A stretch of DNA of 32,000 bases from Candidatus Omnitrophota bacterium (lineage in GTDB: Bacteria; Omnitrophota; Gorgyraeia; Zapsychrales; JANLHA01), in assembly GCA_963662715.1 (NCBI GenBank), contig OY759724.1:2370001-2402000 (forward strand). The letters are read 5' to 3'. This document shows, piece after piece, positions 7,688 to 32,000 of the stretch. The position numbers and the translations under genes are program-made. Position 1 is the first letter of the stretch, and each line of letters opens with the position of its first letter. The notes below the pieces were generated by a model that was not told where the DNA came from, searched no databases, and saw only the letters and a list, made by a program, of their open reading frames with translations.

Positions 7688-7707
7688 AAACAAGGGGATA
7701 TGTTATA

Positions 7708-8139
7708 ATGTCACAAAATATTGAGACTATTGCAGATGAGTTGACTTTTGTCATGCCGCGCATCGTCAGAACCTTGACTTCCCGTTCTGCGCATTCTGTT
7801 AATCTGCCGCCTGCTCAGATTTTTGTTCTTTTAGAACTGCAGGAAAAAGAGATATGCCGGGTTTCTTCTCTAACAACGGCTTTGCATATATCCGCACCCA
7901 CTGTTTCGGGAATCGTGGACCGTCTGGAAAAGACAGGATACGTTTTTCGTGAGCAAGATAAAGAGGACCGCAGGGTGGTGAATATTAAATTAACACAAGC
8001 CGGGCAGGAAGCGGTCACTCAAATAAGACAGAGCATCAAAGAACGGTGGGGTATCATTCTGGAAAAAATACCTTTTGCGGATGCCGAGACATATTTGCGT
8101 ATCGTTAAACAAATTCAGGAACACTTGGAGTCATTATAA
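7708..8139 (+). CDS. MarR-family transcriptional regulator
   Basis: 143 aa. Winged-helix core LPPAQIFVLLELQEKEICRVSSLTTALHISAPTVSGIVDRLEKTGYVFREQDKEDRRVV is typical of MarR. Confidence 0.88.
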   Translation: MSQNIETIADELTFVMPRIVRTLTSRSAHSVNLPPAQIFVLLELQEKEICRVSSLTTALHISAPTVSGIVDRLEKTGYVFREQDKEDRRVVNIKLTQAGQEAVTQIRQSIKERWGIILEKIPFADAETYLRIVKQIQEHLESL

Positions 8140-8230
8140 AGGCGGCCTATCAAATGTGTTTGATTTTGACAGGGCCGATATCAAAGTTTTTGAAATATAT
8201 TTTTTTAACGCGTTAAACTGTTCCCCGGAT

Positions 8231-9757: not shown

Positions 9758-9761
9758 AAAA

Positions 9762-12700: not shown

Positions 12701-12902
12701 TTTGTTGTCGGTCGCTTACGGCTGGGGTGGAGGAGATCCTTTTTTAAAGCCGATGGCCTTGGCGATCATTTGGGGGCTGGGGTTTGCCACCGGCTTGACT
12801 CTCGTTGTCATCCCCTGCATCTACGCCATTGTCGATGATGTTTCCGAAAAGCTCTTTCATCACGGCACGGTTAAGCTGAACGGAATTAAGAAGAAAAGAT
12901 AG
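9762..12902 (+). CDS. RND efflux transporter permease (AcrB/AcrD/AcrF family)
   Basis: 1046 aa with the 12-TM, two-large-loop layout. N-terminus MKLAEFSVKNSLLVNLLSVFI...TITTAYPGA. Conserved GLIIVLGMLVDDGIIVAENV and GLVGLAGIVVNDSVVLVDF TM4/TM10 motifs. Starts 5 nt after the OMF stop. Confidence 0.93.
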   Translation: MKLAEFSVKNSLLVNLLSVFIICVGFVSMVQLRREAFPQVEFDVVTITTAYPGAPAEDVEKLVTTPIEKELKGISGIKEMTSNSEEGLSTIGIEIDPEAREKDKVIDDIERAVDRVKDLPEEIEDDPYIFELSADEFPIIEISVGGDHPEWERRKYAEALEDQLLDIDGVASVMRIAWRDKEFWVEVDPDKLQQYHVSMDEISDTLKTRNITLPGGPLTTPSMEYSVRISGEFRTPQEVEDVVIRANDAGHWLKIKDIARVVDTFEDETHIPKVNGKRSVSMVVVKSKQGDVITVVDSVKKVVAEFESALPEGMEIIITNDFSYYVKRRLNVLKMNGVIGIVLVLVVLFLFLDPVPAFMTALGLPIALFTTFGVMLVMDTSINLITMLGLIIVLGMLVDDGIIVAENVYRYIEQGMSPKEAAIKGTSEVIAPVTVTILTTCAAFMPLLFMKDILGKFIRFIPIIVMVALGSSLLEAFIILPSHLADFVKGHKFKSTHKDNPHKDRRWFHALLNFYTKVIHKALAFRYLVILMVFLTFVGSIFVAVKKMKVIMFTGEGIEEFHVRAEAPKGTPLEKLDELMIPVEKLIASLPEEDLDASRTYLGAIEEERGFDPNAKRGTHLGQIRVFLTPSQKRKRTPQEIIESLRPKLAEIEGFDRLYFHMPREGPPVGQPVEIGIKGDDFAVLEEIARKFMAALDDIEGVTDIVLGYEFGKKQLKIAVDENKAKQYDLSVGQVAATVRTAFDGTVATSIKPTKAEEEIDVLVRFPESVRNDRQKAFDRILVANSKGNLVPLSSVAEVREQEGLYKINHLEGKRVVYVTAQVDGKKATSLEVNFKIQNQFKNMSEQYPGYTVKYSGEFEEQQKTMLNLGRSFLIALFLIFIILAALFNSLVQPFIVLSAIPYGIIGVIFGFLTHHRPLSFFAFMGLVGLAGIVVNDSVVLVDFINQLRKSGKARRQSIVEAGQMRLRPVIMTTVTTIAGLLSVAYGWGGGDPFLKPMALAIIWGLGFATGLTLVVIPCIYAIVDDVSEKLFHHGTVKLNGIKKKR

Positions 12903-16701: not shown

Positions 16702-17265
16702 ATGAGAATCCTTACCGGACAATATAAAGGCCGGAATTTTTATATGCCGGCAGAAATACGCCCAACACAGAATATGGCCCGCAAAGCTATCTTCGATTTA
16801 ATGGGCCATGATTTAAGCGCGTTGGAAATCCTGGATTTATACGCCGGCAGCGGGGCGGTCGGCTTGGAGGCCCTGTCCTTAAACGCCAAAAAGGTGATTT
16901 TTGTTGATAAATCGCTTAAGTGTATGGATACGATTGCGGAAAATCTTGAGCTTTTGGGATTAAAGAGCGGGTTGTTCACGGACCCCCGTTGTGAACTGCT
17001 GCATGCCGATGCTCTGGTGGCGATCAAGACTTTTTTCCGGCAAAAAAGGGCTTTTGACGTCGTTTTTCTCGACCCGCCCTATAACTGCGGCTTCGTAAAA
17101 AAAACCTTGAAAACCCTATGTGCCTATGATATAGTACACCCCGTTTCTTTTGTTGTGGTCCAATTTAGCAAGTCTGAAGCTCTTCCTGATATGCAGGAAG
17201 GATTTACGTTAATTAAGCGCCGGCAATATGGAAAATCTTTCCTTGCTATTTTTCAAAAGAAATAA
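16702..17265 (+). CDS. rsmD: 16S rRNA (guanine966-N2)-methyltransferase RsmD
   Basis: MRILTGQYKGRNF...RPTQNMARKAIFDL, LDLYAGSGAVGLEALS and FLDPPY are the RsmD signature. Confidence 0.9.
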   Translation: MRILTGQYKGRNFYMPAEIRPTQNMARKAIFDLMGHDLSALEILDLYAGSGAVGLEALSLNAKKVIFVDKSLKCMDTIAENLELLGLKSGLFTDPRCELLHADALVAIKTFFRQKRAFDVVFLDPPYNCGFVKKTLKTLCAYDIVHPVSFVVVQFSKSEALPDMQEGFTLIKRRQYGKSFLAIFQKK

Positions 17266-17297
17266 TATTATTAATAGATATAAACAGTAGGTGCATA

Positions 17298-17780
17298 ATG
17301 ATCAGATCCGCTATATATCCAGGGACATTTGATCCTATTACTTACGGGCATATTGATCTTATTCAGCGTGCTACTGAGATCTTTGATAATGTTATTGTTG
17401 CTGTTGCCAGAAACGGGCATAAAAAGCCTTTATTCAGCCTGGAAGAGCGTTTTGAGATGCTGAAAGAGGCGACCAAGGATTTTCAGGGCTTAGAAGTCGA
17501 GGCCTTTGACGGATTAGTTGTCGATTTTGCGCGGGAAAAGAATGTCAAGATTCTTATCCGGGGCCTGCGGATGATTTCTGACTTCGAGTATGAATTTCAG
17601 ATGGCGCTAACAAACAGAAGGCTGGCTTCTCATGTTGAAACAGTATTTCTTATGCCTTCCGAGAGTTATTCCTTCTTGTCGTCCAGGCTGATCAAAGAAG
17701 CGGCTGTTTTAGGGGCGGATATTTCAAGCTTTGTGCCTGATAATGTGGCGGTCCGGTTAAAGGAAAAATTGCATTCATGA
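17298..17780 (+). CDS. coaD: Phosphopantetheine adenylyltransferase
   Basis: AIYPGTFDPITYGHIDLIQRA (T/HxGH motif) and ISSRLIKE-type C-terminal motif. 160 aa. Confidence 0.95.
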   Translation: MIRSAIYPGTFDPITYGHIDLIQRATEIFDNVIVAVARNGHKKPLFSLEERFEMLKEATKDFQGLEVEAFDGLVVDFAREKNVKILIRGLRMISDFEYEFQMALTNRRLASHVETVFLMPSESYSFLSSRLIKEAAVLGADISSFVPDNVAVRLKEKLHS

Positions 17781-18623: not shown

Positions 18624-19613
18624 TTGAATATCGTCGTTGATGCTATGGGAGGGGATTATGCTCCGGCTGCGGTTGTTGAAGGAGTAGTTGAAGCCATCAA
18701 AGACTTTGAGATAAACGTAGTTCTGGTCGGTATTCAGGAACAAATCGAAGCAGAGTTAAAAAAATATTCTTATCCCCCCGAACGCCTTAACATCATGCAC
18801 GCTCCGGATGTGATCGGAATGCATGAGCCTGCCACTGTCAGCATCAGGAAAAAACGCAAATCATCCATTACCATGGGAATCAAGCTGCTGGAAGAGTCGA
18901 AGTATGACGCTTTTATCAGTGCCGGAAATACCGGAGCCGTTGTCGCCGCCTCAACCATCAACCTGGGCATGCTGCCCGGAGTGGAACGGCCCGGGATCGG
19001 GTTGGTCATCCCGACGCTCGACAGTTTTTCTTTTATGATCGATGTCGGAGCCAACACCGACCCCAAACCCAAGCATTTGCTGCAGTCGTCACTTATGGCT
19101 GTTGTCTACGCCCGGGAAGTCCTGGGGGTGCAGAATCCCCGGGTCGGGCTGCTTAATATCGGGGAAGAAGAATCAAAGGGTACGGACTTTGTGAAAGAAA
19201 CGCACCGGATGATGTCGGCGCGCCTTGATAATTTTGTCGGCAATATTGAAGCCAATGATATCTTTTCCGGACGGTGCAACTGCATCATCTGCGACGGCTT
19301 TGCCGGGAATATCGTCATTAAAGTCTCGGAACACCTTATGGAATCCGCTGCGACGCTTATCCGCCGGGAGATTAAGAAGAGCCCGCTGGCTTTGCTCGGC
19401 GCGTTCTTAATGAAAACCCGTCTGGAGCAGATTAAGCGTTATGCCGATTATTCGGAATACGGCGGCGCTCCGTTGCTGGGCGTGAACGGCCTGGTGATGA
19501 TCAGTCACGGACGCTCGAGTTCCAAGGCGATTAAGAACGCTATCCGGGCCGCGAAACGGGAAATCGAACATAATATCATTTCTATTATGATAAAGGAGAT
19601 AAAAGCTAAATGA
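18624..19613 (+). CDS. plsX: Phosphate acyltransferase PlsX
   Basis: 329 aa. IVVDAMGGDYAP, ISAGNTGA, GANTD and PLLGVNGLVMISHGRSS motifs. TTG start preceded by gggagaagg. Confidence 0.93.
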   Translation: MNIVVDAMGGDYAPAAVVEGVVEAIKDFEINVVLVGIQEQIEAELKKYSYPPERLNIMHAPDVIGMHEPATVSIRKKRKSSITMGIKLLEESKYDAFISAGNTGAVVAASTINLGMLPGVERPGIGLVIPTLDSFSFMIDVGANTDPKPKHLLQSSLMAVVYAREVLGVQNPRVGLLNIGEEESKGTDFVKETHRMMSARLDNFVGNIEANDIFSGRCNCIICDGFAGNIVIKVSEHLMESAATLIRREIKKSPLALLGAFLMKTRLEQIKRYADYSEYGGAPLLGVNGLVMISHGRSSSKAIKNAIRAAKREIEHNIISIMIKEIKAK

Positions 19614-20587
19614 GAAGTGTCGGAATTGTTGCCACAGGCTCTTTTGTGCCTGATAAAGTTTTAACGAATGCTGATTTAGAAAAGATGGTTGACACCTCGG
19701 ATGAATGGATATTAACCCGTACAGGCATTAAAGAACGGAGAATCGCCGAGAAGCACGAGCGGAACAGTTTTCTGGCCAGCCGGGCGGCCAAAGATGTCTT
19801 GGCCCGCTCTCCGGTCAAAGCGGAAGATATCGAGTTGATCGTCGTGGCTACCATCAGCCCGGACAGCCCTTTCCCGTCGGTTGCCTGTCTTGTTCAAAAA
19901 GAAATCGGTGCGAAGAAAGCCGCGGCTTTTGATGTCAGTGCGGCCTGTGCCGGTTTCCTGTATGCTTTGACGACGGCGAAACAATATATCCAGACGGGCC
20001 TTTATAACAATGCCCTTGTGATCGCGGCTGAAAAATTCACTTCCTTTATCGACTGGAACGACCGCAGCACCTGCGTTCTTTTCGGTGACGGGGCCGGGGC
20101 CTGTATGCTGGCTCCTGTTGAAGACGGTAAAGGTATTGTCTCAGACCATCTTTTTTCCCAGGGGGATTCGGCAGAGCTTATGGCGGTGATCGTTGAGGAC
20201 CGGGAGCCTCTTAACCAGCAGAATACCATGATGCGTATCCCTTATGTGGAGATGCGCGGCCAGGAATTGTTTAAAGTCGCTGTCACATCCATGGCTGATG
20301 TCGCAAAGCTCGCTTTGCAAAAAGCCGGAGTCGGCATCGAGGACGTCGATTGCCTCGTGCCTCATCAGGCGAACGACCGGATTATTTCTGCCGTTGCCAA
20401 GAGGCTGGGGGTGCCCAAGGACAAGTTTTATATCAATATCCACCGTTACGGAAATATGTCGGCCGCTTCTTTGGCTGTCGCGCTGCACGAAGCCATTGCG
20501 GAAGGCCAGATTAAAGAAGGTTCTAACGTCGTATTGGCTGCCTTTGGTGCCGGACTCGTATCAGCCGCCAATGTCGTGAAGTTCTGA
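19610..20587 (+). CDS. fabH: 3-oxoacyl-ACP synthase III
   Basis: ATGA overlap with plsX. Catalytic Cys in AACAGFLYAL, His in VPHQAN, Asn in YGNMSAAS. Confidence 0.95.
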   Translation: MRSVGIVATGSFVPDKVLTNADLEKMVDTSDEWILTRTGIKERRIAEKHERNSFLASRAAKDVLARSPVKAEDIELIVVATISPDSPFPSVACLVQKEIGAKKAAAFDVSAACAGFLYALTTAKQYIQTGLYNNALVIAAEKFTSFIDWNDRSTCVLFGDGAGACMLAPVEDGKGIVSDHLFSQGDSAELMAVIVEDREPLNQQNTMMRIPYVEMRGQELFKVAVTSMADVAKLALQKAGVGIEDVDCLVPHQANDRIISAVAKRLGVPKDKFYINIHRYGNMSAASLAVALHEAIAEGQIKEGSNVVLAAFGAGLVSAANVVKF

Positions 20588-20747
20588 TTTGAGCGGCAAG
20601 CCCGAAGAGCCGTCCGTCCCGGATGCCGGTTTTTGCCCGGGCGGCCCCGCCGCAACTCTCATTTCGGACTTGAAATTCCCAGGACGCGAACGAAGAGATG
20701 ATATTCACCAGAGGGCACAACACGGCTAAAATCCGGAAAGGACATTT

Positions 20748-21659
20748 ATGAAAAAAGCTGCTTTTATATTCCCCGGCCAGGGCGCCCAGTACGTCGGTAT
20801 GGGCAAGGCGTTATATGACGCTTCCCCTGAGGCTAAAACTGTTTTTGAACAGGCGGACAAAATTTTAGGAAAGGACTTAACGCGGGTCATCTTCGAAGGC
20901 CCCGATGAAACCCTGATGTCCACGGCGTATTGCCAGCCGGCGATATTGACGGTGAGTTTTGCTGCGGTGAAGGCTTTGCAGGCGCGGGATATTCGGCCGG
21001 AGTTTGTCGCCGGATTGAGCCTGGGTGAACTGTCGGCTCTTGCCGTGAGCGGAGCGTTAAGCTTTGAAGAAACGCTTAAGCTGGTTGAGCGCCGGGCCGC
21101 TTTTATGGAGGAGGCGACAAAACTCAATGCCGGAAAAATGGCCGCGGTCATCGGCCTGGAAAAACAGCAGATTGCTGATGCCTGTCAGGCGACGGGCGCC
21201 GAGGTCGCCAATTTTAATTCTCCGCAGCAGATCGTCATTACCGGGCATGCGGATAAAGTGGATGCGGCCTGCCGGGTGCTTAAAGAGGCCGGAGCGAAAA
21301 ACGTTGTCGTGCTGGACGTGGCCGGAGCTTTTCATTCAAGCTTGATGCAGACGGCGGAAGATAAATTTAAAGAGGAACTGCAGCAATATGATTTTAAGCC
21401 GGCGAGCATCCCGATTGTTTCCAACGTGGACGCCAGACCGGCTGTCCGGCCCGAAGTGATCCGAAGTAATCTTGCGCGGCAAATTACATCTTCTGTCCAG
21501 TGGGTCGATTCGGTGAACTTTATGGCCGGGCAGGGGGTGGAGTCTTTTTTTGAGGTCGGTCCCGGGAAAGTCCTGAAAGGATTAATGCGGCGGATCAATA
21601 AGGGCTTGACGGTGCAGAATATTGAAAAGCCGGAAGACATTGCGGCACTTGACCTTTAG
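20748..21659 (+). CDS. fabD: Malonyl-CoA:ACP transacylase
   Basis: FIFPGQGAQYVGMG, active-site GLSLGELSAL, GAFHS. Confidence 0.95.
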   Translation: MKKAAFIFPGQGAQYVGMGKALYDASPEAKTVFEQADKILGKDLTRVIFEGPDETLMSTAYCQPAILTVSFAAVKALQARDIRPEFVAGLSLGELSALAVSGALSFEETLKLVERRAAFMEEATKLNAGKMAAVIGLEKQQIADACQATGAEVANFNSPQQIVITGHADKVDAACRVLKEAGAKNVVVLDVAGAFHSSLMQTAEDKFKEELQQYDFKPASIPIVSNVDARPAVRPEVIRSNLARQITSSVQWVDSVNFMAGQGVESFFEVGPGKVLKGLMRRINKGLTVQNIEKPEDIAALDL

Positions 21660-21861
21660 CCCTCCCGAAATAATCCGCGTCACTTATCCCGCAAAAAGAT
21701 GCAGCTGTGATAAGGAAGAGGCTTCTGCGCTTATTTTTTCCCGCGGAGCTGATTTTTTTTGTGTTTTTCTGACCCGAATATGTTTTTTTTACCCTGCATT
21801 TTAAAAACCACTTCTTTTATCTCAATTGTTGAAAATTTTGTTATAATAATTACGAATTATC

Positions 21862-21891
21862 TTGACGGTAAATAGACATCACTACTATAAT
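21862..21891 (+). promoter_or_regulatory. Candidate sigma70-type promoter for the FabZ-like/KAS operon
   Basis: TTGACG (21862-21867), 18-nt spacer, TATAAT (21886-21891), in an AT-rich 260-nt gap after fabD. 27 nt upstream of the ATG at 21919. Confidence 0.4.
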
Positions 21892-21918
21892 TAAAAATAT
21901 TAGTAGTAAGTTTACTAT

Positions 21919-22371
21919 ATGTCGCAAAAAATTAATAATTATCAGTTGCATAAAATCCTTCCGCACACTTATCCTTTTCTTTTAATAGACTATGTAGAAA
22001 AATTTACGAAAGGGAAAAACCTCACAGCCATTAAAAATATTACGGTCAACGAATGGCCGTTTACAGGCCGGGTCAATTTCTCTAACCGCTACCCGGAAAT
22101 ACTGCTGATAGAAGCGTCCGCTCAGGCCGCATTGGTTTTGTATTATTTGACTTTTGAAGATGACCCGAACCGCCCGTTGCCGATTATCGGCCGGGTCGCG
22201 GCGGAGTTTGCCGGGGATGTCTCTGCGGGGGATCAGGTCAGAATCGAAGTGACCGGCGGGAAGTATATGCGAAAAGGAGGGTATTCGTTTATTGATATCT
22301 TTCACGATCAGCAGGTTTTGGCGCGGATTAAAATTATTTACGGAGTCTTACCCAGGAAAAGAACGTTATGA
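21919..22371 (+). CDS. FabZ/FabA-like hotdog-fold protein with catalytic His replaced by Arg
   Basis: LPHTYPFLLIDYV...AIKNITVNEWPFTGRVNF...ILLIEASAQA aligns position-for-position with E. coli FabZ LPHRFPFLLVDRV...NEPFFQGHFPG...LILEAMAQA. The His of GHFP is Arg51 (cgg, 22069-22071). The Glu is retained. Confidence 0.8.
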   Translation: MSQKINNYQLHKILPHTYPFLLIDYVEKFTKGKNLTAIKNITVNEWPFTGRVNFSNRYPEILLIEASAQAALVLYYLTFEDDPNRPLPIIGRVAAEFAGDVSAGDQVRIEVTGGKYMRKGGYSFIDIFHDQQVLARIKIIYGVLPRKRTL

Positions 22372-22490
22372 TAAAAGCCGTCCAATCCCCTAAAAGACGC
22401 GTTGTGGTGACCGGGCTGGGCGTTGTGTCCTCTATCGGCATAGGCTGGCAGGAATTCTGGAAGAATATTATTGCCGAAGAATTTACCTGA
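22368..22490 (+). pseudogene. 40-codon N-terminal remnant of a beta-ketoacyl-ACP synthase (not in ORF track)
   Basis: My translation is MIKAVQSPKRRVVVTGLGVVSSIGIGWQEFWKNIIAEEFT*. ATGA overlap with the FabZ-like stop. Residues 12-31 are identical to residues 8-27 of the intact KAS at 23717. It then diverges and stops. Confidence 0.8.
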
Positions 22491-22568
22491 ATTTGTTGTA
22501 GATTTAGAGTAAAAAATTTTTTGTAACCTTGGGTGACTTATAAAAGAACTCAAAAGAGAGGGGTAAAG

Positions 22569-23720
22569 ATGTTCAATGATGTAGAATCAAAGATTAAAGC
22601 TATTTATAATAAAAAGTATTATGAGGTTTTTCATCTAGGGAAGGTTTTTACCGTGGAACTTGTGCGGAAGATATTAATCGAATCTTTAATTGTAGAAAAA
22701 TTATCTCAAAAAGAAAGTACATTGCAACAAATTAAAGATGAATTAATATTTGCTGATAATTCAATCCCCGCATTAAGATGGCTGATGGAGTTTGCCTGTG
22801 AAGAAGAATTAATTAATAAAGAATTTTTCAATGAAGAATGGAGATATTCTTTAAAAGGAGAATTTTTAAAAAGAGACCTACAGTTACTTGCTAATAATAT
22901 TTTAGATCTTGATCCTGGTTGGAAGACATTTATTCAGTTGATGCGGATAGTTGCTGATGATTATCCATTATTTTTTAAAGGAAAAAAGACTGGAATAGAA
23001 ATTTTATTTGCAAAAGACCGCGCTCATTATTGGGATGCTTATTTTGGAAACGTTTATAGTGCGTATACTGCTTATAATGAGTTTGGGGCTTTATTAGCTT
23101 CAGAAGTTATTGCTTTGAAAGAACATCCTTTAATTTTAGAAATAGGCGCGGGAACGGGAGGTGCGACTGAAAAGTTGCTAGATTTATTGAAAAAAAGAGA
23201 CCTTTTGTCGAGAATGAGTCAATATATTTACTCTGATATTTCTCCTCTTTTTTTGAGAACTGGAAATAAAGTTTTGATGAGATATCTTGGCCCTGATATG
23301 GATTATGATTTATTTAAAGTAGATTTTAACAAATCTTTCACAAATCAAAAAATTAAAGAAGAAAGTGTTGATGTTGTGTATGGTGTAAATGCCTTGCATG
23401 TATCGAAGAATTTATTGCAAACATTGAATTCTATAAAAGAGATATTAAAACCAGAAGGATATTTAGTTGTTTGTGAGGTTATTCGATCTCAAAAAAACAA
23501 ACCGTTATTTTTAGAACTCATTTTTAACATATTAGATTCATATACACAAGTTGATATTGATCCCGATTACAGATTTTCTCATGGCTTTTTAACCTTTGAA
23601 GAATGGAAACGTGCTTTAGAAATAGCAGGTTATGCTAAGGTTGAAATTTATGATAATGTTTGTGGCAATTCCCAGGAAAAACAGGAAATAATAGCCGGTG
23701 TTATTGTGGGACAAAAATGA
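22569..23720 (+). CDS. Class I SAM-dependent methyltransferase (Methyltransf_12 / PKS C-methyltransferase-like) with ~180-aa N-terminal helical extension
   Basis: Motif I ILEIGAGTGGATEKLL, post-I YSDISP, VVYGVNALHVSKNLLQTLNSIKEILKPEGYLVVCE. Start set at the ATG at 22569, preceded by gagagggg. The track start 22533 is a GTG. Confidence 0.8.
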   Translation: MFNDVESKIKAIYNKKYYEVFHLGKVFTVELVRKILIESLIVEKLSQKESTLQQIKDELIFADNSIPALRWLMEFACEEELINKEFFNEEWRYSLKGEFLKRDLQLLANNILDLDPGWKTFIQLMRIVADDYPLFFKGKKTGIEILFAKDRAHYWDAYFGNVYSAYTAYNEFGALLASEVIALKEHPLILEIGAGTGGATEKLLDLLKKRDLLSRMSQYIYSDISPLFLRTGNKVLMRYLGPDMDYDLFKVDFNKSFTNQKIKEESVDVVYGVNALHVSKNLLQTLNSIKEILKPEGYLVVCEVIRSQKNKPLFLELIFNILDSYTQVDIDPDYRFSHGFLTFEEWKRALEIAGYAKVEIYDNVCGNSQEKQEIIAGVIVGQK

Positions 23721-24925
23721 TTATGAAAGAAAAAAAAGTTGTTGTTACAGGGCTAGGAGTTGTTTCCTCTATTGGTATAGGTTGGCAGGAATTTTGGGGG
23801 AATCTTTTAGCTGGGAAATCAGGGATTAGCAGGGTATCTTCTTTTGATACTTCAGAATATGATCGTCATAATGCTGGAGAAGTAAAGATTTTTAAATCAA
23901 GAAAATTTATTGCTGAAAAGAAATCTAAAAGATTGGGCAGATCTTCCCAAATGGCTATAGCTGCGAGTTTGCTTGCTCTAGAAGATGCGAAAATAGTCGT
24001 TAACGATCAAATATCTAAGAAAGGAATTGTCTGTGTCGGCACGACAACAGGAGAAATCGGGATTTTTATTAAATATCATGATAATAAATTTAGAGGTGAA
24101 GTAAAATTTGACTCTAATCTAATATCTGTTTTTCCTGCGAACTCAGTTGCCTCAAATATTGCTATTCAAAATGATTTTCGAAGTCAAAATATTACTTTTG
24201 GCACAGCATGTGCCTCGGGTAATTATGCAATATCTTACGCATTTGATTTAATTAAATCTGGACAGGCTGATTATGCTTTGGTCGGTGGTAGTGATGTCTT
24301 TTCAAGAATGGTCTTTGCGGGATTTTGTAAATTATTTGCAGTTGCCCCCCAGATGTGCCAACCTTTTGATAAGAATAGGAAAGGTATGATCCCAGCAGAG
24401 GGAGCTGGGTGCCTTTTTTTAGAATCTCTTATGTCTGCGAAGGAACGAAATGTAGATATATATGCAGAGATTTTGGGATACGGATTGTCTTGTGATGCTT
24501 TTCATATGACTAAGCCTTCACCAGAGGGAATCTTTAAGGCAATTAAAAAAGCAATCGTGAATTCTGATATTTCACCATCTGATATTGATTATGTTTCTGC
24601 ACATGGCACGGGTACTAGAGAAAATGATATTGCCGAGTGTGCGGCAGTAAAGAAAATATTGAAGAACAATGTTCCTATGAGTTCAATAAAATCAATGTTA
24701 GGCCATACTTTGGGAGCTGCTTCTGCTATTGAAGCTATCTCTTGTTGTTTATCCGTTTCTACGGATCAGATTCCCCCAACTATAAATTATGAAACTCCCG
24801 ACCCGTTATGTGATGTTGACTGTGTGCCGAATGTTAGTAGAAATAAAAAAGTACGAGTGGTATTGAATAATTCGTTAGCTTTTGGGGGAAATAATTGTTG
24901 CGTGATTTTTAAAAAAATTGATTAG
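23717..24925 (+). CDS. Beta-ketoacyl-ACP synthase, elongating (FabF/FabB-like, Cys-His-His) of a non-housekeeping subfamily
   Basis: KKVVVTGLGVVSSIG, active-site Cys in GTACASGNYA, His in VSAHGTGT and SMLGHTLGAAS, C-terminal AFGGNNCCVIFKK. ATGA overlap with the methyltransferase stop. The track start 23660 lies inside the upstream gene. Confidence 0.88.
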   Translation: MIMKEKKVVVTGLGVVSSIGIGWQEFWGNLLAGKSGISRVSSFDTSEYDRHNAGEVKIFKSRKFIAEKKSKRLGRSSQMAIAASLLALEDAKIVVNDQISKKGIVCVGTTTGEIGIFIKYHDNKFRGEVKFDSNLISVFPANSVASNIAIQNDFRSQNITFGTACASGNYAISYAFDLIKSGQADYALVGGSDVFSRMVFAGFCKLFAVAPQMCQPFDKNRKGMIPAEGAGCLFLESLMSAKERNVDIYAEILGYGLSCDAFHMTKPSPEGIFKAIKKAIVNSDISPSDIDYVSAHGTGTRENDIAECAAVKKILKNNVPMSSIKSMLGHTLGAASAIEAISCCLSVSTDQIPPTINYETPDPLCDVDCVPNVSRNKKVRVVLNNSLAFGGNNCCVIFKKID

Positions 24926-24945
24926 TTAAAAAGTGGTGAGAATCT

Positions 24946-26046
24946 ATGAAAAAAGCCGCAATGTTGTTTCATCCCCCGAATTTGACAATTGTTGATGAAA
25001 CCGTTGTCAAGGTTATGCCTTTTTTAAAGAATTTATACTCTCGTATTTCAGAAATTAAGAAAAAAAATTTTTTTAGAAGATGTCCACCCTTTAAATTTTT
25101 TAATGTTGATAATTTTGAGTCAGTAACTGGGAAAAAGATTGGATTACTTGGGGTTATGCTTCCGTGGTTCCCAGAACAATTAGTGTCTGGAGATCGTCAA
25201 GTAGTTCAAAAAGAAATTCTTAAAGCAATTTCTTTGGCAAAAAAGAATAAAGCAGAAATTATTACTTTGGGGGCTTTTACATCTATAGTAACGAATCAAG
25301 GGAAAGATTTGGTTGGGAAAACACCCATTGCAATAACTAGCGGAAATACTTATACGGCAGCTTTGTGTATCCGTTCTATTTTTGAAATATGTCAAAAATT
25401 AGAGGTTGATTTAAATAAGGTCAGCTTATGTATTGTTGGGGCAACTGGAGATATTGGTAGTATGTGTGCGAAAGTCCTTTCAAAATATGTTAAGAAATTA
25501 ATTTTATGTTCAAGAAGTATTTCAAACACAAGTGAAATTGTTGTTGAGATTGAGAGAAATATGAACAAAAGGCCAATCATTATGAATCAGCAAGATGAGG
25601 CAGTTAGAGAAGGCGACATTATTATTAGCGCAACTAGTTCGTGGGGGTTGTTATTTAATCATTTAGATTTAAAGCCTGGGACGATATTATGTGATATCTC
25701 TATGCCGCCGAATGTCGCTAGAAATATTCGAAAGGAACGAAAGGATATTTTAGCTTATTCAGGGGGAAGAGCACAGTTTTTAAATTTTATGCATATCAAG
25801 AATCCTATTTGGAAGGCAATGTTTCCTACTAATAATATATATGGTTGTATGGTAGAATCACTAATTTTGGCATTAGAAGATAGATTTGAGAATTTTTCTT
25901 TGGGAAGAGCCACTTCTGATGAGAAAAAAATAGACGAGATATATGACTTGGGGATAAAACATGGTTTTTCTCTAGCAAAATTTAATAATTTTAATTATAT
26001 TTATTCAATAGAAGATTTTAATTATATCAAATCAATTTTACATTAA
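24946..26046 (+). CDS. Acyl-ACP reductase (cyanobacterial AAR)-like NAD(P)-dependent reductase
   Basis: LGAFTSIV, ITSGNTYTAALC, VGATGDIGSMCAKVL (Rossmann), IYGCMVESLILALE (Cys301 at 25846-25848), NFSLGR...IDEIYDLGIKHGF. These parallel AAR blocks LGGFTSII, TTGNTHTAYV, VGATGDIGSAV, FACFAEAMLLEFE, NFSWGR...ASVRHGF, which I recalled from memory. Confidence 0.7.
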   Translation: MKKAAMLFHPPNLTIVDETVVKVMPFLKNLYSRISEIKKKNFFRRCPPFKFFNVDNFESVTGKKIGLLGVMLPWFPEQLVSGDRQVVQKEILKAISLAKKNKAEIITLGAFTSIVTNQGKDLVGKTPIAITSGNTYTAALCIRSIFEICQKLEVDLNKVSLCIVGATGDIGSMCAKVLSKYVKKLILCSRSISNTSEIVVEIERNMNKRPIIMNQQDEAVREGDIIISATSSWGLLFNHLDLKPGTILCDISMPPNVARNIRKERKDILAYSGGRAQFLNFMHIKNPIWKAMFPTNNIYGCMVESLILALEDRFENFSLGRATSDEKKIDEIYDLGIKHGFSLAKFNNFNYIYSIEDFNYIKSILH

Positions 26047-26051
26047 TAATT

Positions 26052-28247
26052 ATGATAGGTAATTTAGAGAATATATTATCAATAGCCACTTTTGTGACAT
26101 TTTTGTTGTTTTTAGTGTTAGCCATTTTCCTTGTTACAAAAAATATAAGATCCTCCACCAATATTTCTTTTTCTCTCGTTTGTGTAAGTGCCTCAATTTG
26201 GTCTTTAAACTATTCAATAGCATACAGATCTGTCGATACTGATGTAGCTTTATTTTGGTTTAAGATAGGATATGTTGGAGTTATGTTTATTGCTATTACT
26301 TATTTTCATTTTGCGATAGTCTTTCTAAGACTAAAGAACATGTTCAAATATGTAAGCTTAAACTATATAGCAGGAATTTTCTTAACAGGGCTACTTTTAA
26401 ATTCTAATATGCTTATTAGTGGCCTTAATGTATTTTCTTGGGGAAGATATCCGAAGGCCGGAAGTTTGCACCCGATCTTTTTGTTGTATTTTTTTGCATT
26501 AGTAAATATCGCAACGATTCAATTAGCAGTAGCTTTTATCAAAAAAAGGAAGACAATTCCTTTAACGCAGGTTCAGCAGCTAAAATATATATTGTTCGCT
26601 TTTAGTATTTATACAATAAATTCTATAGATTTCATTCCTAATTATGGAATTAGTATCCTCCCTGTCGGGTTCATCCCGGCAACGATTTTTATGAGTATAA
26701 TCGTTTATAGTATTGTTAAATTCCGCCTGATGGATATCTCCGTCGCCATCACTCGTACAAGTATTTTCGTCGCAGTTTATTCTCTTGTCCTTGGTATTCC
26801 TTTTGCTCTTGCCTTTGGGTGGCGTGCCCGTCTGCAGAATATTCTGGGGGAGGGGTGGTGGTTGGCGCCTTTAGTTAGTTCTACGGTTTTAGCCACAGCC
26901 GGGCCGTTTATTTATCTTTACATCCAGAAAAGAGCGGAAAACCGCCTGTTCCAGGAGCAGAAAAGGTATCAATCCACCTTGAGGCAGGCTTCGGCCGGTA
27001 TGGGCCGGATAAAAGATTTAAACCGTTTGGTGAACTTGATCGTCCACATCGTCAGCAGGACTGTCCGCTTGGAACATGCTTTGGTGTATTTGCAGGACCC
27101 GCAGACGCGGACATATGTTTTAAAGGCTCATCGAAGCCGGGCTGTAAGGTTCAAAACCCAGGATGTTATCGAGAGTAATTCAGAAATTGTCAAAGTGTTA
27201 AACCGGGAGCGGGAGCCTGTCGTCTATGAGGAGATTAAACAGCAGACCCAGGATTACGGGGATTTGAAGCTGGCCCGTTTGGAAACGGAATTAGCCGCTA
27301 TTAATGCTGCTTTGGTGGTGCCTTGTTATATTGATGAAAAATTGCTGGCGATGATTATCCTCGGCAGAAAGATGTCGAATGATTTATATTCTGAAAGCGA
27401 CCTTGCTGTTTTCTCCATCCTGGCTAATCAGGCGGCCTTGGCCATGGAAAATGCGATGTTTTATGAAGAAATGAAAAACACCCATGCCCAGCTTATGAAA
27501 GCGGAAAAAATGGCAACGATCGGGACCATGGCGGACGGGCTTTCCCATCAGATTAATAACCGCCTTCACGCCTTGGGCTTTATTGCCGGAGATGCTCTGG
27601 ATACGATAAAGTACAAAAAAGACGTGCTTATGAAAGACCCGGAAGTGAAGGAAATTATGGTTGACCTGGAGCATGCTTTGAATAGAATAGAGGATAATGT
27701 GACGCAGGGCGGAGAAATTGTCCGGGGCTTGTTGAAATATACCCGTAAGGGAGAGGAAGGCTTTTCCGATCTGGAGTTTGACCAGCTGATCAATGCTTCT
27801 GTGGAGATGACCCAATTTAAGATCAAGCCGGGAGAGCTGCAGATCTTAAGAGAGTACGGCGCGGACATTCCGAAAATAAAGGGGAATTTTACCCAGCTTC
27901 AGGAAGTGTTCTTTAACCTCATTGATAATGCTTATGATGCGATGATGCAGAGGAAAGCCGAGCTTAAAGAAAAAGAATATAGCCCGACGATTAAGATTTT
28001 CGCTCAGGGGGATAATAACGGCGGGATAAATATCCGCTTTGAAGACAACGGGATCGGTATTAAGGACGAAGATAAGATGAAGCTTTTTACCCCGTTCTTT
28101 ACGACGAAATTATCGAGTAAGAAAGGCACGGGGCTGGGCCTTTATGTCATTCAGAAGCTGATCGAAGAAAATCATGAAGGGAAAGTCGCCTACAGTTCCG
28201 TGTATCAGCAGGGGACGAATGTATCGATTTATCTTCATTCTGTTTAA
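26052..28247 (+). CDS. Sensor histidine kinase: N-terminal 7TM sensor region, GAF, HisKA, HATPase_c
   Basis: 731 aa with ~7-8 hydrophobic helices in the first ~290 aa. GAF-like segment LVNLIVHIVSRTVRLEHALVYL...AALVVPC. H-box MADGLSHQINNRLHAL, N-box FNLIDNAYDAM, G-boxes EDNGIGI and GTGLGLYV. Starts 5 nt after the AAR-like stop. Confidence 0.88.
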   Translation: MIGNLENILSIATFVTFLLFLVLAIFLVTKNIRSSTNISFSLVCVSASIWSLNYSIAYRSVDTDVALFWFKIGYVGVMFIAITYFHFAIVFLRLKNMFKYVSLNYIAGIFLTGLLLNSNMLISGLNVFSWGRYPKAGSLHPIFLLYFFALVNIATIQLAVAFIKKRKTIPLTQVQQLKYILFAFSIYTINSIDFIPNYGISILPVGFIPATIFMSIIVYSIVKFRLMDISVAITRTSIFVAVYSLVLGIPFALAFGWRARLQNILGEGWWLAPLVSSTVLATAGPFIYLYIQKRAENRLFQEQKRYQSTLRQASAGMGRIKDLNRLVNLIVHIVSRTVRLEHALVYLQDPQTRTYVLKAHRSRAVRFKTQDVIESNSEIVKVLNREREPVVYEEIKQQTQDYGDLKLARLETELAAINAALVVPCYIDEKLLAMIILGRKMSNDLYSESDLAVFSILANQAALAMENAMFYEEMKNTHAQLMKAEKMATIGTMADGLSHQINNRLHALGFIAGDALDTIKYKKDVLMKDPEVKEIMVDLEHALNRIEDNVTQGGEIVRGLLKYTRKGEEGFSDLEFDQLINASVEMTQFKIKPGELQILREYGADIPKIKGNFTQLQEVFFNLIDNAYDAMMQRKAELKEKEYSPTIKIFAQGDNNGGINIRFEDNGIGIKDEDKMKLFTPFFTTKLSSKKGTGLGLYVIQKLIEENHEGKVAYSSVYQQGTNVSIYLHSV

Positions 28248-28295
28248 TGTCATGTGTTAATATAAAATGCAGTTGTTATTAGAAAGGATAGGGAG

Positions 28296-28661
28296 ATGCC
28301 CAAGCTGTTGATCGTTGATGATGAGATGGATATACGCGAATTCGCGAGAAACTTTTTTAAAAAAAGAGGCATAAACGTGTTCACGGCCAGCGGTGGCGGT
28401 GATGCTTCGGAAATCATTGAGAACGAAAAGCCCGATTTGATTCTGCTGGATGTGCGTATGGAAGAGATCACCGGGGTGGAGCTGCTTAGAGATATCCGGC
28501 AGAAAGGGAATGATACAAAAGTTATTATGGTAAGCGGGGTGGAAGATGATTCTATCATTGACGAATCAAAAACACTGGGAATTTTGGGTTTTATTCATAA
28601 ACCGCTTATTTTGGATGAGCTGGAGAAGATCGTTTTAAAAGAGCTCCAGCAAGAGCAGTAA
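28296..28661 (+). CDS. Stand-alone response regulator receiver (CheY-like)
   Basis: KLLIVDDE, DLILLDVRM (phospho-Asp), VIMVSG, FIHKP. No output domain. Confidence 0.9.
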   Translation: MPKLLIVDDEMDIREFARNFFKKRGINVFTASGGGDASEIIENEKPDLILLDVRMEEITGVELLRDIRQKGNDTKVIMVSGVEDDSIIDESKTLGILGFIHKPLILDELEKIVLKELQQEQ

Positions 28662-28724
28662 CTCTTCAATGAATATCTCGTCTGAAAACCCAAACACATT
28701 TTTCCTTGAATAGATCATATCGTT

Positions 28725-29921
28725 ATGGCTATGACAAAGCATAAGAGAATCGATTATAAAAGAGAGCTGGAGGCCGCCAGCAAGGGCATGATCATGATCC
28801 ATGACCCGAAGCTCCTGATCAAGCTCATTGTGCGTATGATCGTGAATAAAGTCATGATCAAGCATGCCGGTATGATCCTTTATGAACCGGAGAAAGACGC
28901 TTATGTGTTAAGCATTTCCCGGGGGGAGACGGGGTTTAAAGTCCCGGCGGGGTTTGCCCGTTTTAGCACAAACCATTCGGTTATCAAATTATTTACCGAA
29001 AAAGAATACCGGGCGCTTACCATAAACAAGAATGCCATTCTTGTCCAGGATCTCAACAGGCTGATCTGGCAGGAGAGTATCCTGAACAGTAAAAACGGCA
29101 ATCAGCAGCTTCTGCATGACGTGGGGGAGCAGATGCAGATGTTTAATGCGGTTGCTTGTGTTCCGGCTTATTATCAGGACAAGTTGCTCGCCGTCCTGTT
29201 GCTGGGCGAGAAGAACGACGGCAACAGCTTTGATCAGGAAGAACTGGATTTTTTTGCTGCTTTAGCTTCGGATGTCGCGATGGCTATCCGGAACGCCCAG
29301 CTGTTTATGGATCTTAAACGGGAGTCGGAAAAGAACCATGACTTGTTTCTCAGGACGATGATGGTTTTAGGGCAGGCGATTGAAGTTAAAGACAAATATA
29401 CACATGGCCATACCAAAAGGGTGACGGATTTTGCCGTTGCCATTGCCAAGCAAATGATCCTTAACGGATCGGCGGATTTTGATGACGTTTTCCTGGAGGA
29501 TTTGTATATCGCCGGAATGCTGCATGATATCGGGAAGATCGGGGTGCCGGAAGAAGTCCTTAACAAGAATGGCCGGCTCTCAAAAGAGGAATATGAAATT
29601 ATCAAGCTTCATCCCCAGTACGGCGTGGAAATTTTATCCCCGCTGTCTGAATTGAAGCAGAGTCTGGACGGAGTCCATTACCACCACGAAAGGTATGACG
29701 GTGCCGGCTACCCGGAAGGGTTGAAGGGAGCCGAAATCCCGATCGTGGCGATGATCATTTCTGTTGCAGATGCGTTTGACGCGATGACGACCGACCGTCC
29801 TTACCGCCCGGGCATGACAAAAGGACAGGGTGTTGAAGAAGTCAAGAGAAACTCCGGGACCCAATTTCACCCCAAGCCTGTCCAGGCCTTAGTCGAATTG
29901 TTCGAAATGGGCCGCTTGTAA
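28725..29921 (+). CDS. GAF domain-containing HD-GYP phosphodiesterase (c-di-GMP hydrolase family)
   Basis: GAF-like N-terminal half (ACVPAYYQDKLLAVLLLGEK). HD-GYP half has THGHTKRV, MLHDIGKIGVP, HHERYDGAGYPEGL and DAFDAMTTDRPYR. Confidence 0.9.
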   Translation: MAMTKHKRIDYKRELEAASKGMIMIHDPKLLIKLIVRMIVNKVMIKHAGMILYEPEKDAYVLSISRGETGFKVPAGFARFSTNHSVIKLFTEKEYRALTINKNAILVQDLNRLIWQESILNSKNGNQQLLHDVGEQMQMFNAVACVPAYYQDKLLAVLLLGEKNDGNSFDQEELDFFAALASDVAMAIRNAQLFMDLKRESEKNHDLFLRTMMVLGQAIEVKDKYTHGHTKRVTDFAVAIAKQMILNGSADFDDVFLEDLYIAGMLHDIGKIGVPEEVLNKNGRLSKEEYEIIKLHPQYGVEILSPLSELKQSLDGVHYHHERYDGAGYPEGLKGAEIPIVAMIISVADAFDAMTTDRPYRPGMTKGQGVEEVKRNSGTQFHPKPVQALVELFEMGRL

Positions 29922-30030
29922 ATGAGCATATTGTGATGACTTTCTTCTTATGAGGTGGGGTGGATAAGATGGCCGGGGAGTTTGATCTGAAACTCTGTTT
30001 CGAAAGAATCATTAAAAGGCAGATTTTAAA

Positions 30031-30393
30031 TTATGTTGTTAGGTTTTTTCTCACCACGCTCAGAATTTCTTCCGCCTTAAATGGTTTAACGACATAGCCG
30101 TCAGCACCTAATTTTACAGCTTCCGTAGCTGTCTCCTCAGACGCATAGATGGTCACCATAATAACTCCCACGCCGGGATAATCATTTTTGATGTGTTTAA
30201 GTATTTCCAGCCCATTGCTGCTTGGCATTTTGATATCCAGCAGAACCAGGCCAATCTCCTTGTCGTTCGCAAGGCAGTCAAGGCCTTGTCCGGCGTCTTC
30301 TGTGACAATCAGTTCATAAAAGTCACTGAGAATCAACTTAAGTGACTCCCGTACTCCTTCTTCGTCATCAATGATTAAAATTTTTTTTGACAT
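30031..30393 (-). CDS. Stand-alone response regulator receiver (CheY-like)
   Basis: KILIIDDEE, LVLLDIKMP, IMVT, VVKPF. Start set at the Met of MSKKIL (30393), where GGAGG sits 5 nt upstream on the coding strand. The track start 30405 falls within that RBS. Confidence 0.88.
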   Translation of the reverse strand: MSKKILIIDDEEGVRESLKLILSDFYELIVTEDAGQGLDCLANDKEIGLVLLDIKMPSSNGLEILKHIKNDYPGVGVIMVTIYASEETATEAVKLGADGYVVKPFKAEEILSVVRKNLTT

Positions 30394-30980: not shown

Positions 30981-31263
30981 GGGGTATTACCTCTAATTAA
31001 TACATTTGATAAATGGCCTGAAAGCCAATAACGGCATTCTCTGGTGGTGCGAACCGTATGCCAGTAAATGCATACTACCTTAATAAGTAGTTTCTGTAGA
31101 TACAATATAAGGTTATCATGATTTGATTAAATTGCAATATTTATTTGATGAATAATAAAATATATGTTGTTTCTGTCAATTGTATTCATACTCGACAGGA
31201 AATGCACCTATTAAACAAATACATGAAGAATAACCATCCGACCTCCCAAATGGAGTTTGGGAA

Positions 31264-31572
31264 ATGTGTCCTGATAGTAATGGTTTAATCCAAACGTCAA
31301 ATACAATATCAGACCTTCAACAATGGGGTACTCATCAAACGACTCAAAAATCACTAGCTTTAGGTGGAGATTACATTGAATCCTTTCAAGTTCGTGTCAA
31401 TAAACAAGGATTAATTGACGCAATTCAACTTTATGAACAAACTTTTTCTGGGCAAATGGATTATAATGCATTAAATCATAATAGTAATTTTGCTGTAAAC
31501 AGTATAATATATGTAGCGGGTGGTGATATCCCTGCGGGCGGTCGGGCTCCCGGATTTCCATCTAATCCATAA
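31264..31572 (+). CDS. Hypothetical protein (orphan, AT-rich segment), possibly the 3' part of a frameshifted gene
   Basis: 102-aa ORF. An overlapping 47-codon ORF that I translated at 31148-31288 lies in another frame. Weak NC/PPPDE-like motif YNALNHNSNFAV with Ser where those families have Cys. Confidence 0.35.
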   Translation: MCPDSNGLIQTSNTISDLQQWGTHQTTQKSLALGGDYIESFQVRVNKQGLIDAIQLYEQTFSGQMDYNALNHNSNFAVNSIIYVAGGDIPAGGRAPGFPSNP

Positions 31573-31587
31573 TTAAGGAATATAAAA

Positions 31588-31977
31588 ATGATAAAGAAAA
31601 TATATGTGATTTTAAGTTTTCTGGTTCTCGCTATGTTTTTATATCCAATGAGAGGAGTTCCGATGGCGATAAACCCTGATAAATCCAACGAAATCATAAA
31701 AAAGTATAACCGAATCAATTTTTCTGATGGTATTAATAAAGATGAGGCAATTATTATTGCCCAACATAGTATTGTTACTGATGAGGAAAATAATTGGAAG
31801 GATAATTTGAAAGTAGCCAGCGCAGAAGTTGACAATAGTGGTCTTGATGAAGGTTGGTGGGCAGTAGGATTTGATGCCACATTAAGTTTTAAATCAAGAA
31901 CAGGGTTAAGATGGTTTACTATTCACATTGATAAAAAGACAGGAGAGATAAAAAGTAAGGGCTGGGGGCCTGCATAA
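31588..31977 (+). CDS. Hypothetical exported small protein
   Basis: 129 aa with N-terminal hydrophobic signal or anchor IYVILSFLVLAMFLY. C-terminal WFTIHIDKKTGEIK resembles the PepSY-type beta-hairpin motif. aaggaa RBS-like sequence upstream. Confidence 0.5.
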   Translation: MIKKIYVILSFLVLAMFLYPMRGVPMAINPDKSNEIIKKYNRINFSDGINKDEAIIIAQHSIVTDEENNWKDNLKVASAEVDNSGLDEGWWAVGFDATLSFKSRTGLRWFTIHIDKKTGEIKSKGWGPA

Positions 31978-32000
31978 TTTTCGACGAGAAGTGCAAAAGA

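Follow-up and report, generated by a model that had tools for sequence, protein, structure and literature searches.

A low-GC block in an Omnitrophota genome, probably one allele of a recurrently exchanged cassette of lipid-tailoring genes and a 7TM sensor

The 32,000-nt stretch analysed here (contig OY759724.1 of assembly GCA_963662715.1 of a Candidatus Omnitrophota bacterium, positions 2,370,001 to 2,402,000; hereafter, the window) contains a block of low G + C content (GC) that begins inside a truncated β-ketoacyl synthase (KAS) gene and ends inside the gene of a histidine kinase (HK). It is quite likely that this block is the allele, in this genome, of a phylum-wide replacement cassette, in which lipid-tailoring genes are combined with a seven-transmembrane (7TM) sensor and which was installed by recombination. 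All positions refer to the window, and all listed genes of the run from the hotdog dehydratase to the HD-GYP protein lie on the plus strand.

Hundreds of homologs of the window kinase occur in Omnitrophota, and a scan of GTDB species representatives yielded 80 loci, almost all of them from this phylum (L-numbers designate the relatives’ loci and P-numbers their proteins; L088 carries P0003 and L002 carries P0005). The main backbone comparators of the window were L001, L002 and L005, joined by L087 for BLASTN at the junctions. The common locus order is plsX-fabH-fabD-hotdog-KAS, a variable segment, and then HK-response regulator (RR)-HD-GYP. Many GTDB records with the locus are titled “uncultured Planctomycetales” (L004, L006, L007 and other “binchicken” or third-party metagenome-assembled loci), and single ones “Daviesbacteria” or “Actinomycetota”; these titles are probably naming or binning artefacts rather than an occurrence of the locus outside Omnitrophota.

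Composition and gene content of the block

The block (22479-~26715) has a GC of 0.326, against 0.501 in the left flank (18624-22478) and 0.464 in the right flank (26716-29921), and the lowest value among 288 windows of the same size elsewhere in the stretch was 0.424 (mean 0.475, standard deviation 0.019). In 500-nt sliding windows, GC falls from 0.48-0.55 outside to 0.28-0.39 within ~22.25-26.75 kb, and at 60-nt resolution the drop lies at ~22481 and the recovery at ~26700-26820. The GC dip is real and well beyond chance. The preliminary description of this DNA had put it at 27-30% within as opposed to 50-60% outside, figures which were somewhat exaggerated, while the dip itself stands. The profile is a sharp step, not a smooth one, also in the GC of third codon positions (GC3): the complete block genes have values of 0.22 (methyltransferase), 0.26 (KAS) and 0.25 (reductase-like gene), the flanking genes 0.42-0.62, and the kinase gene passes from 0.24-0.36 up to ~nt 26700 (codons 1-220) to 0.48-0.70 thereafter. 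The pooled GC3 is 0.250 in the block vs. 0.537 in the flanks (chi2 = 368), whereby one flank interval (8140-9757) entered this test out of frame and the reliable per-gene values lead to the same conclusion. Amino-acid composition or a membrane-protein bias was ruled out as the cause of the low GC by the GC3 values, by the polytopic membrane proteins AcrB and EamA of the same stretch (GC3 of 0.58 and 0.55, respectively), and by the synonymous G/C-to-A/T pattern described below.

The order of genes through the block is as follows. A FabA/FabZ-like hotdog dehydratase gene (21919..22371; GC3 0.51), whose product scores below the cutoff of the FabZ models, overlaps with its stop the start of a 40-codon stump of a KAS N-terminus (22368..22490) in an ATGA. 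An AT-rich leader of 90 nt (22479..22568), with no homology to the relatives, carries AGAGAGGGG, resembling a ribosome-binding site, ahead of the start of an S-adenosylmethionine-dependent methyltransferase (MT) of 383 aa (22569..23720). The MT stop overlaps, again as ATGA, the start of a full-length FabF-like KAS II gene (23717..24925), followed by the gene of an acyl-ACP reductase (AAR)-like protein of 366 aa (24946..26046). The histidine kinase of 731 aa (26052..28247; HisKA_7TM, GAF, HATPase_c) consists of a hypervariable HisKA_7TM sensor part (aa 1-~221, 26052..26714; GC3 ~0.24-0.36) and a conserved core (26715..28247; end of TM7, GAF, dimerization and phosphotransfer domain DHp, HATPase_c; GC3 ~0.55). 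Downstream lie its conserved partner, a receiver-only RR (28296..28661), and a locus-conserved GAF-HD-GYP protein with an HD_5 domain (28725..29921), presumably the output as a cyclic diguanylate (c-di-GMP) phosphodiesterase.

Neither an integrase nor a transposase domain was found by Pfam in the block or the scanned adjacent genes, the rpmF region and two hit-less open reading frames (ORFs) being outside this coverage. No tRNA lies close to the block, the sole tRNAs of the stretch being at 1217-1381 in the rRNA spacer, and no terminal repeats flank it, the one repeat worth noting being the duplicated N-terminus of KAS. The preliminary description, which had reported no integrase, transposase, tRNA target or flanking repeats and to which the block did not look like a classical mobile element, is borne out in both respects. 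A mobile element such as an integrative island, transposon or prophage remnant, or a diversity-generating retroelement, is thus extremely improbable as the origin: although the segment is AT-rich relative to its host and a bAvd-like gene occurs at the equivalent locus of one relative, L084, the scanned genes and ends include no integrase, transposase, reverse transcriptase, tRNA target or terminal repeat, and the divergence spans whole genes and gene content rather than a short variable repeat.

The two junctions

The left edge had been placed inside a KAS remnant in the preliminary description, and the alignments agree: homology of the stump to the native KAS of the relatives ends at 22465-22480, with the unrelated AT-rich leader following up to the MT start. 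Homology to the native KAS of L001, L002 and L005 extends to 22477..22480, just right of which GC collapses. The stump thus consists of 36 native high-GC codons, 4 foreign codons and a stop, and it is ~85% identical in amino acids to the KAS N-termini of L017, L019, L027, L037 and L066. Moreover, 22401-22474 aligns with 23738-23811, the N-terminus of the block KAS, over 74 nt with 80% identity, and at every synonymous difference (10/10) the stump has G/C where the block copy has A/T. The native KAS was thus cut off at codon ~36-37 and fused to DNA with which it shares no homology, the stump being the scar of this replacement. Since the homologous position in the incoming KAS is displaced by 1.3 kb to the right, the left join is not a homologous crossover. 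No similar KAS stump was present at the other loci (~85 compared), where the duplicate matches are full second KAS genes. The 90-nt leader was also compared with hotdog genes, as it might have come from the 3′ terminus of a donor copy. It translates to KNLPEFVVDLE*, which is unlike the hotdog C-termini of 16 loci (…I.IIY.V…), and this origin is at best doubtful.

The right junction zone (26712..26820) lies, as had been described, in the 7TM region of the kinase with the frame open. DNA homology resumes at 26712 (L001), 26748 (L087) and 26757 (L002 and L005), and the GC3 step is finished by ~26820. At aa ~221-231, protein identity to the kinases of the same four loci climbs abruptly from 0.1-0.5 to 0.75-1.0, coinciding with the start of a universally conserved segment, VKFRLMDIS...VYSLVLGIPFA. 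The kinase frame is continuous across the junction, and the HisKA_7TM, GAF and HATPase_c domains are all kept.

A terminator-like GC-rich hairpin followed by a T-run is situated at 26663-26691 inside the kinase ORF, ~25-50 nt before the right junction. As a real terminator it was rejected: the sequence encodes a conserved P-x-GFI motif, and its resemblance to a terminator is probably accidental.

Recurrence across Omnitrophota

L001, L002 and L005 share one synteny, recG...plsX-fabH-fabD-hotdog-KAS followed by an AAR-like gene and the gene of a CrtI-like FAD oxidoreductase in either order and then by HK-RR-HD-GYP. Their accessory genes have a GC3 of 0.25-0.33, the GC3 step falls inside the kinase, and the AAR-like and FAD proteins of L001 and L002 are 28-29% identical. 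The plsX-fabH-fabD ... HK core-RR-HD-GYP synteny is found in these three loci, in L084 and in many of the 80 loci, whereas the segment upstream of the kinase is variable in content and has a GC3 of ~0.22-0.33 even with flanks at 0.7-0.8 (L037, L056, L018, L027, L046). In 76 kinases from the scan loci, the median GC3 was 0.29 in the sensor (interquartile range 0.26-0.33) vs. 0.47 in the core; the sensor-core step exceeded 0.1 in 50/76 loci, and was most extreme at 0.29 vs. 0.79. The mean profile of 31 high-GC loci rises from ~0.33 to ~0.6 at aa 240-256, just past the rise in conservation at aa 211-240. The low GC3 is not simply a consequence of weak conservation, since the poorly conserved linkers of the kinase core (aa 361-375, 526-540, 646-660) still have a GC3 of 0.5-0.6. 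Low GC characterizes the pool of cassettes, whatever the composition of the host. Because cassettes have a GC3 of ~0.25-0.33 even where the host flanks reach 0.7-0.8, a donor of lower genomic GC, as suggested in the preliminary description, is not required.

Replacement is seen most directly between close relatives. L088 and L002 are 91.8-94.8% identical in nucleotides from kinase aa ~230 over ~10 kb downstream, bar one gap of ~0.8 kb, whereas upstream L088 has a thioester-reductase gene (related to fatty-acyl reductases, FAR) and L002 an AAR-like gene, and their sensors are unrelated; the identity rises from ~0.45 to ~0.90 within ~60 nt at aa ~230. Among L006, L013 and L014, the cores share 93-94% identity but the sensors 21-30%, and the reverse is seen in L038 and L050, with sensors 76% and cores 58% identical. 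Overall, sensor and core identity are decoupled, the median sensor identity being 26-30% in every bin of core identity from 40% to 90%. With near-identical genomes differing by whole cassettes and with the boundary recurring, it is therefore the locus, not one event, that is special.

These comparisons bear on two further explanations. One is a single idiosyncratic patch from a lower-GC relative, left by homology-facilitated illegitimate recombination (HFIR) at a locus which itself is not special. The KAS stump with its non-homologous left join, seen only in the window among ~85 loci, would fit this, as would the fact that the nearest AAR and sensor relatives (L008) reside in a genome with a uniformly low GC3 (0.25-0.37). 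However, the same low-GC3 hypervariable segment with an intragenic right boundary is present in most of the sampled genomes, including hosts with a GC3 of 0.7-0.8, and the L088/L002 pair differs by a whole cassette; a lone patch is unlikely and, as a complete explanation, largely refuted. The recombination patch of the preliminary description thus keeps its homologous kinase end and its illegitimate KAS end, but not its singularity, as it recurs phylum-wide.

The other is divergence in situ, i.e., fast evolution under relaxed or diversifying selection in the absence of any transfer, with AT-biased mutation lowering GC3. Hypervariable regions do overlap with low GC3, and accessory genes are generally AT-rich. 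Such divergence would, however, not account for loci differing in gene content and order (combinations of AAR, FAR, thioesterase, second KAS, MT and FAD enzymes), for a native KAS stump beside a full xenolog in the window, for a change from ~90% identity to saturation within ~60 nt next to flanks 92-95% identical, for the L038/L050 sensors being more alike than the cores, or for the host-like GC3 of the weakly conserved core linkers. It is very unlikely, being refuted as the sole cause, and may contribute to the AT-rich pool.

The preliminary description had named a chimeric assembly as the competing explanation, here in the form of two co-occurring strains merged in a metagenome. The source is probably a metagenome-derived genome, and exact-sequence look-ups of the window HK, MT (GTG start), AAR-like and hotdog proteins returned no identical protein on record. 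Nevertheless, the block lies within a 3.36-Mb contig, a chimera would need two collinear joins back to the same chromosome in frame, and the left join is non-homologous, while assemblers join at shared k-mers. Moreover, the same step in composition and identity recurs in dozens of independent assemblies, and the kinase ORF and the ATGA operon coupling are intact. An assembly artefact is, hence, highly improbable.

The ~0.8-kb gap in the homology of L088 and L002 falls on another HisKA_7TM kinase, the second of the region and encoded on the minus strand, where it coincides with the 7TM N-terminus. This gene lies between HD-GYP and a divergent RR gene (L002:13899-15521(-), L088:4960-6588(-), L089:4249-5877(-)). 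Its 7TM N-terminus (~300 aa) is hypervariable and of low GC3, its core is 87-100% identical, and its sensor alleles assort independently of the sensor of the first kinase. The second kinase is absent from the window and L001; in the window, 110 nt separate HD-GYP from the RR gene (29921-30031).

Different histories of block and flanks

In the window kinase, the core (aa 237-731) is nearest to P0004 (87% identical), P0013/P0006 (83%), P0002/P0005 (82%) and P0003 (80%), whereas the sensor (aa 1-236) is 26-43% identical to the sensors of these same proteins. The best sensor match anywhere reaches 55-57%, in a protein whose core is 58% identical. The backbone genes agree with the core: identity to L001, L002 and L005 is 79-81% for plsX, 84-89% for fabH, 81-86% for RR and 84-87% for HD-GYP. 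In contrast, the block KAS shares 52-55% identity with its counterparts in these three loci, which are mutually 81% identical, while the backbone genes reach 71-89%; the AAR-like protein is 30-39% identical to those of the relatives. By these sequence comparisons, the native KAS was replaced by a xenolog.

No close donor was found in the databases, the best identities being 43% for MT, 57% for the sensor and 47% for AAR, and none of the best 120 kinase matches has a sensor more than 57% identical to that of the window. The MT family is rare, with 10 database members, and the MT of P0125 is found in an unrelated gene context.

Cassette enzymes and their sensors

The nearest relatives of the MT are the C-methyltransferase domains of polyketide synthases (PKS), namely those of DisA, AprA MT2, CurJ, PsoF, the citrinin PKS and LovB. 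The block KAS contains the motifs ACASG, HGTGT and GHTLGAAS, which we read as the putative Cys and the two putative His of the active site. On TIGR03150 this KAS scores 400 bits, against a cutoff of 494, and on PRK07314 383 bits, against 387; the KAS of the relatives score 404-415 bits on the latter model. Along its entire length, the 366-aa protein shows homology to cyanobacterial AAR (6jzq) and to the N-domain of PigE (4ppm). It is called AAR-like and not an AAR equivalog because it scores 115 bits on TIGR04058, below the equivalog cutoff of 450. Its Cys-containing YGCMVE motif presumably corresponds to the catalytic-Cys motif of AAR, and the protein is a candidate chain-release enzyme of the window’s cassette type. 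The gene order of the window represents a natural cassette type, because the hotdog-MT-KAS order is intact in L019 and L084, where it forms part of a hotdog-MT-KAS-KAS2-HK arrangement.

At the other loci, the gene adjacent to the kinase encodes an AAR-like protein (13 loci), an unknown protein of ~340 aa (12), a thioester-reductase/“male sterility” domain (10), a second, AmcF-like KAS (8), a CrtI/CrtD-like FAD enzyme (8) or a thioesterase-like protein (4). Some loci have extra genes for a nitroreductase, a short-chain dehydrogenase/reductase, a FadL/TodX-type outer-membrane channel or a helix-turn-helix (HTH) protein; L087, for instance, combines FAR and nitroreductase genes. The sensor type co-varies with the family of this adjacent enzyme: with the same family, the median sensor identity is 31.6%, vs. 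26.1% otherwise (0/2000 label permutations), while the core identity is 54.2% in both cases (164/2000), and among the pairs with a sensor identity of at least 45%, 19 of 26 share the adjacent family, as opposed to the 13% expected. The pattern agrees with transfer of the whole segment as a unit and would also allow for functional coupling.

Judging from family membership, hotdog, KAS and the variable tailoring and release enzymes would divert acyl-ACP to a lineage-specific fatty-acyl product. In the window, the combination of hotdog, C-methyltransferase, KAS and acyl-ACP reductase probably leads to a C-methylated fatty aldehyde or alcohol. The co-inherited 7TM sensor might respond to this product or to a change that it causes in the membrane, signalling through the RR to the HD-GYP phosphodiesterase. 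Tentatively, and with more doubt than confidence, the locus might be a phylum-wide polymorphic system of chemical recognition resembling staphylococcal agr: a lineage-specific fatty-acyl molecule, perhaps an aldehyde or alcohol, methyl-branched or desaturated, would be perceived by a cognate 7TM receptor and would control c-di-GMP via RR and HD-GYP, its alleles being kept ancient and AT-rich through frequency-dependent selection and inter-lineage recombination at a domain-boundary hotspot.

Proposed mode of exchange

The replacement cassette would work as follows. At a fixed site, the accessory fatty-acyl genes and the sensor-coding 5′ third of the kinase would be repeatedly exchanged between lineages, with the conserved kinase core as the anchor on the right and the conserved hotdog/KAS/fab genes on the left, and the exchanged pool would stay at a GC3 of ~0.25-0.33 regardless of host composition. 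In the window, the incoming DNA would have comprised MT-KAS-AAR-sensor and the start of the core. The right crossover would have been homologous, in the conserved core within 26712-26820, and the left join illegitimate at 22477-22480, whereby the native KAS from codon ~37 onward and the previous cassette would have been deleted and a 36-codon stump left behind. The other loci are mostly scar-free, as would be expected if homologous exchange had taken place on both sides. A working kinase probably results only from crossovers at the domain border, and the conserved TM7/linker sequence would give the necessary homology.

Several points weigh against this reading. The left join may stem from two steps, an insertion and then a deletion. 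The GC3 of sensor and core is only weakly correlated (rho 0.31), and the proposed exchange does not by itself account for the AT-richness of the pool. As no close donor cassette was found, we infer transfer from incongruence rather than from a donor-recipient pair. Physical linkage alone may yield the co-variation of sensor and enzyme, and the sensor of the second kinase is hypervariable with no cassette adjoining it, which weakens the idea that the cassette product drives the variability.

Relation to known exchange systems

The closest architectural analogue is the hypervariable region of staphylococcal agr, which is made up of agrB, agrD and the sensor-coding part of agrC, with discrete allelic groups (PMC10482373). 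Both systems combine biosynthesis genes with the membrane sensor part of the adjacent kinase in one hypervariable block beside a conserved core and flanks, and in both, close relatives carry discrete, highly divergent alleles. The agr signal is, however, a ribosomal peptide processed by AgrB, whereas the enzymes here are predicted to act on fatty-acyl chains (KAS, C-methyltransferase, acyl-ACP and thioester reductases, desaturase-like proteins); moreover, gene content varies, the sensor is HisKA_7TM and the output is an RR with HD-GYP.

The closest evolutionary category is that of replacement flexible genomic islands, which have a lower GC than their host and encode exposed cell-surface structures that phages target. 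As in the present locus, they occupy the same chromosomal position between conserved flanks, with no mobility genes found here, and hold different, often non-homologous genes of analogous function, which in our case is suggested by family assignments. In islands of O-chain/O-antigen and capsule genes, the exchange has been ascribed to homologous recombination in the flanks (PMC4033161). Also shared are close genomes with different versions and sharp borders (here L088/L002 as well as L006, L013 and L014). Unlike the large glycosylation and envelope clusters, bounded by whole conserved genes, the segments here measure 2-5 kb, deal with lipid-type chemistry and include a predicted inner-membrane sensor, and the right boundary is intragenic, creating a chimeric sensor kinase each time.

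In HFIR, known from Acinetobacter, S. pneumoniae, P. stutzeri and E. coli, one homologous anchor is combined with one illegitimate join (PMC3240628, PMC5361080). The window has the same elements, with the kinase core as the anchor, the illegitimate join in KAS, foreign DNA gained and recipient DNA lost; the difference is that HFIR was defined experimentally, while here the mechanism is read from its product alone. The displacement of effector-immunity modules of type VI secretion systems (T6SS) and of C-terminal modules of Rhs and contact-dependent inhibition (CDI) proteins leaves orphan remnants (PMC5361080). Common to these systems and the present locus are a conserved segment anchoring the new module, a truncated remnant and a junction within coding sequence. 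In those, however, a constant 5′ part is followed by a variable 3′ toxin/immunity module, whereas here it is the 5′ sensor, together with the upstream enzymes, that varies, and no toxin/immunity logic is involved.

Pairs of a synthase for a lipid-derived signal and a membrane sensor kinase are PhcB/PhcS of Ralstonia, CqsA/CqsS of Vibrio and RpfF/RpfC of Xanthomonas. They, too, encode a fatty-acyl-modifying enzyme (PhcB being a methyltransferase) beside a multi-pass membrane histidine kinase, which detects the product of that enzyme. They differ from the present locus in having no sequence relationship to it and another enzyme set, and the functional link is suggested here by linkage and co-variation. 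In the literature searches, neither this locus nor any ligand of HisKA_7TM was found described. Compared with agr and the replacement islands, three features set the present locus apart: the lipid-type chemistry, the varying gene content, including non-homologous release enzymes, and the intragenic domain border reused phylum-wide.

Surrounding genes and other variable regions

The first 5 kb of the window are free of ORFs because they hold an rRNA operon (1-4831), composed of the 3′ part of 16S (1-995), tRNA-Ile (1217-1293), tRNA-Ala (1306-1381), 23S (1696-4650) and 5S (4715-4831). The genes that follow encode, in order, a GGDEF protein, MarR, an OEP/AcrB efflux pair, EamA, RecG, RsmD-like and CoaD-like proteins, YceD, PlsX, FabH and FabD. 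The interval 5057-12902 comprises an 830-aa MORN-PAS-GAF-GGDEF diguanylate cyclase, MarR, the outer-membrane efflux protein and the AcrB-type pump; with this upstream cyclase and the downstream HD-GYP protein, the region is rich in genes of c-di-GMP signalling. The best sigma-70-like promoter match of the region (TTGACG-18-TATAAT, 11/12; 21862..21891, plus strand) is located in the AT-rich gap after fabD; as a pattern match, it is the likely start of a putative hotdog-to-HD-GYP operon.

The hotdog gene is 52-57% identical to those of the backbone relatives, far more diverged than its neighbours (71-89%), and it opens with ~140 AT-rich nucleotides (GC 0.17-0.38) despite the host-like overall GC3 of 0.51. 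In L056, hotdog and KAS have a GC3 of 0.34-0.35 vs. 0.76 in the flanks. The hotdog gene may itself be mosaic, or lie within the variable zone in some lineages. The locus of L084 is broken by small genes: PDDEXK_3 (4640-5059) between yceD and rpmF, and 23S_rRNA_IVP/bAvd-like four-helix-bundle genes (15349-15735 and 17175-17621) around HD-GYP, all of which are absent from the window. At the end of the window, a second low-GC stretch (31000-32000; GC 0.33-0.36) contains two ORFs with no Pfam hits (31264-31572, GC3 0.18; 31588-31977, GC3 0.29), and at the equivalent position, after the HTH-cupin gene, the relatives hold different genes. This may be another variable region beginning at the edge of the stretch.

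Significance

The finding carries a caution for the reading of genomes, namely that a low-GC patch need not be a one-off import of low-GC DNA, the allele pool being of low GC even in hosts with a GC3 near 0.8. The KAS stump offers a rare natural footprint, beyond model organisms, of recombination that is homologous on one side and illegitimate on the other. The locus might also help to tell strains or “pherotypes” apart within Omnitrophota populations, and the gene set (hotdog, KAS, C-methyltransferase, reductases) is small enough that its products might be identified through heterologous expression. If the proposed reading is true, the locus would be a concrete case of modular sensor evolution in an uncultivated phylum, where the ligand-binding half of a kinase is swapped together with the neighbouring enzymes at a boundary reused phylum-wide.

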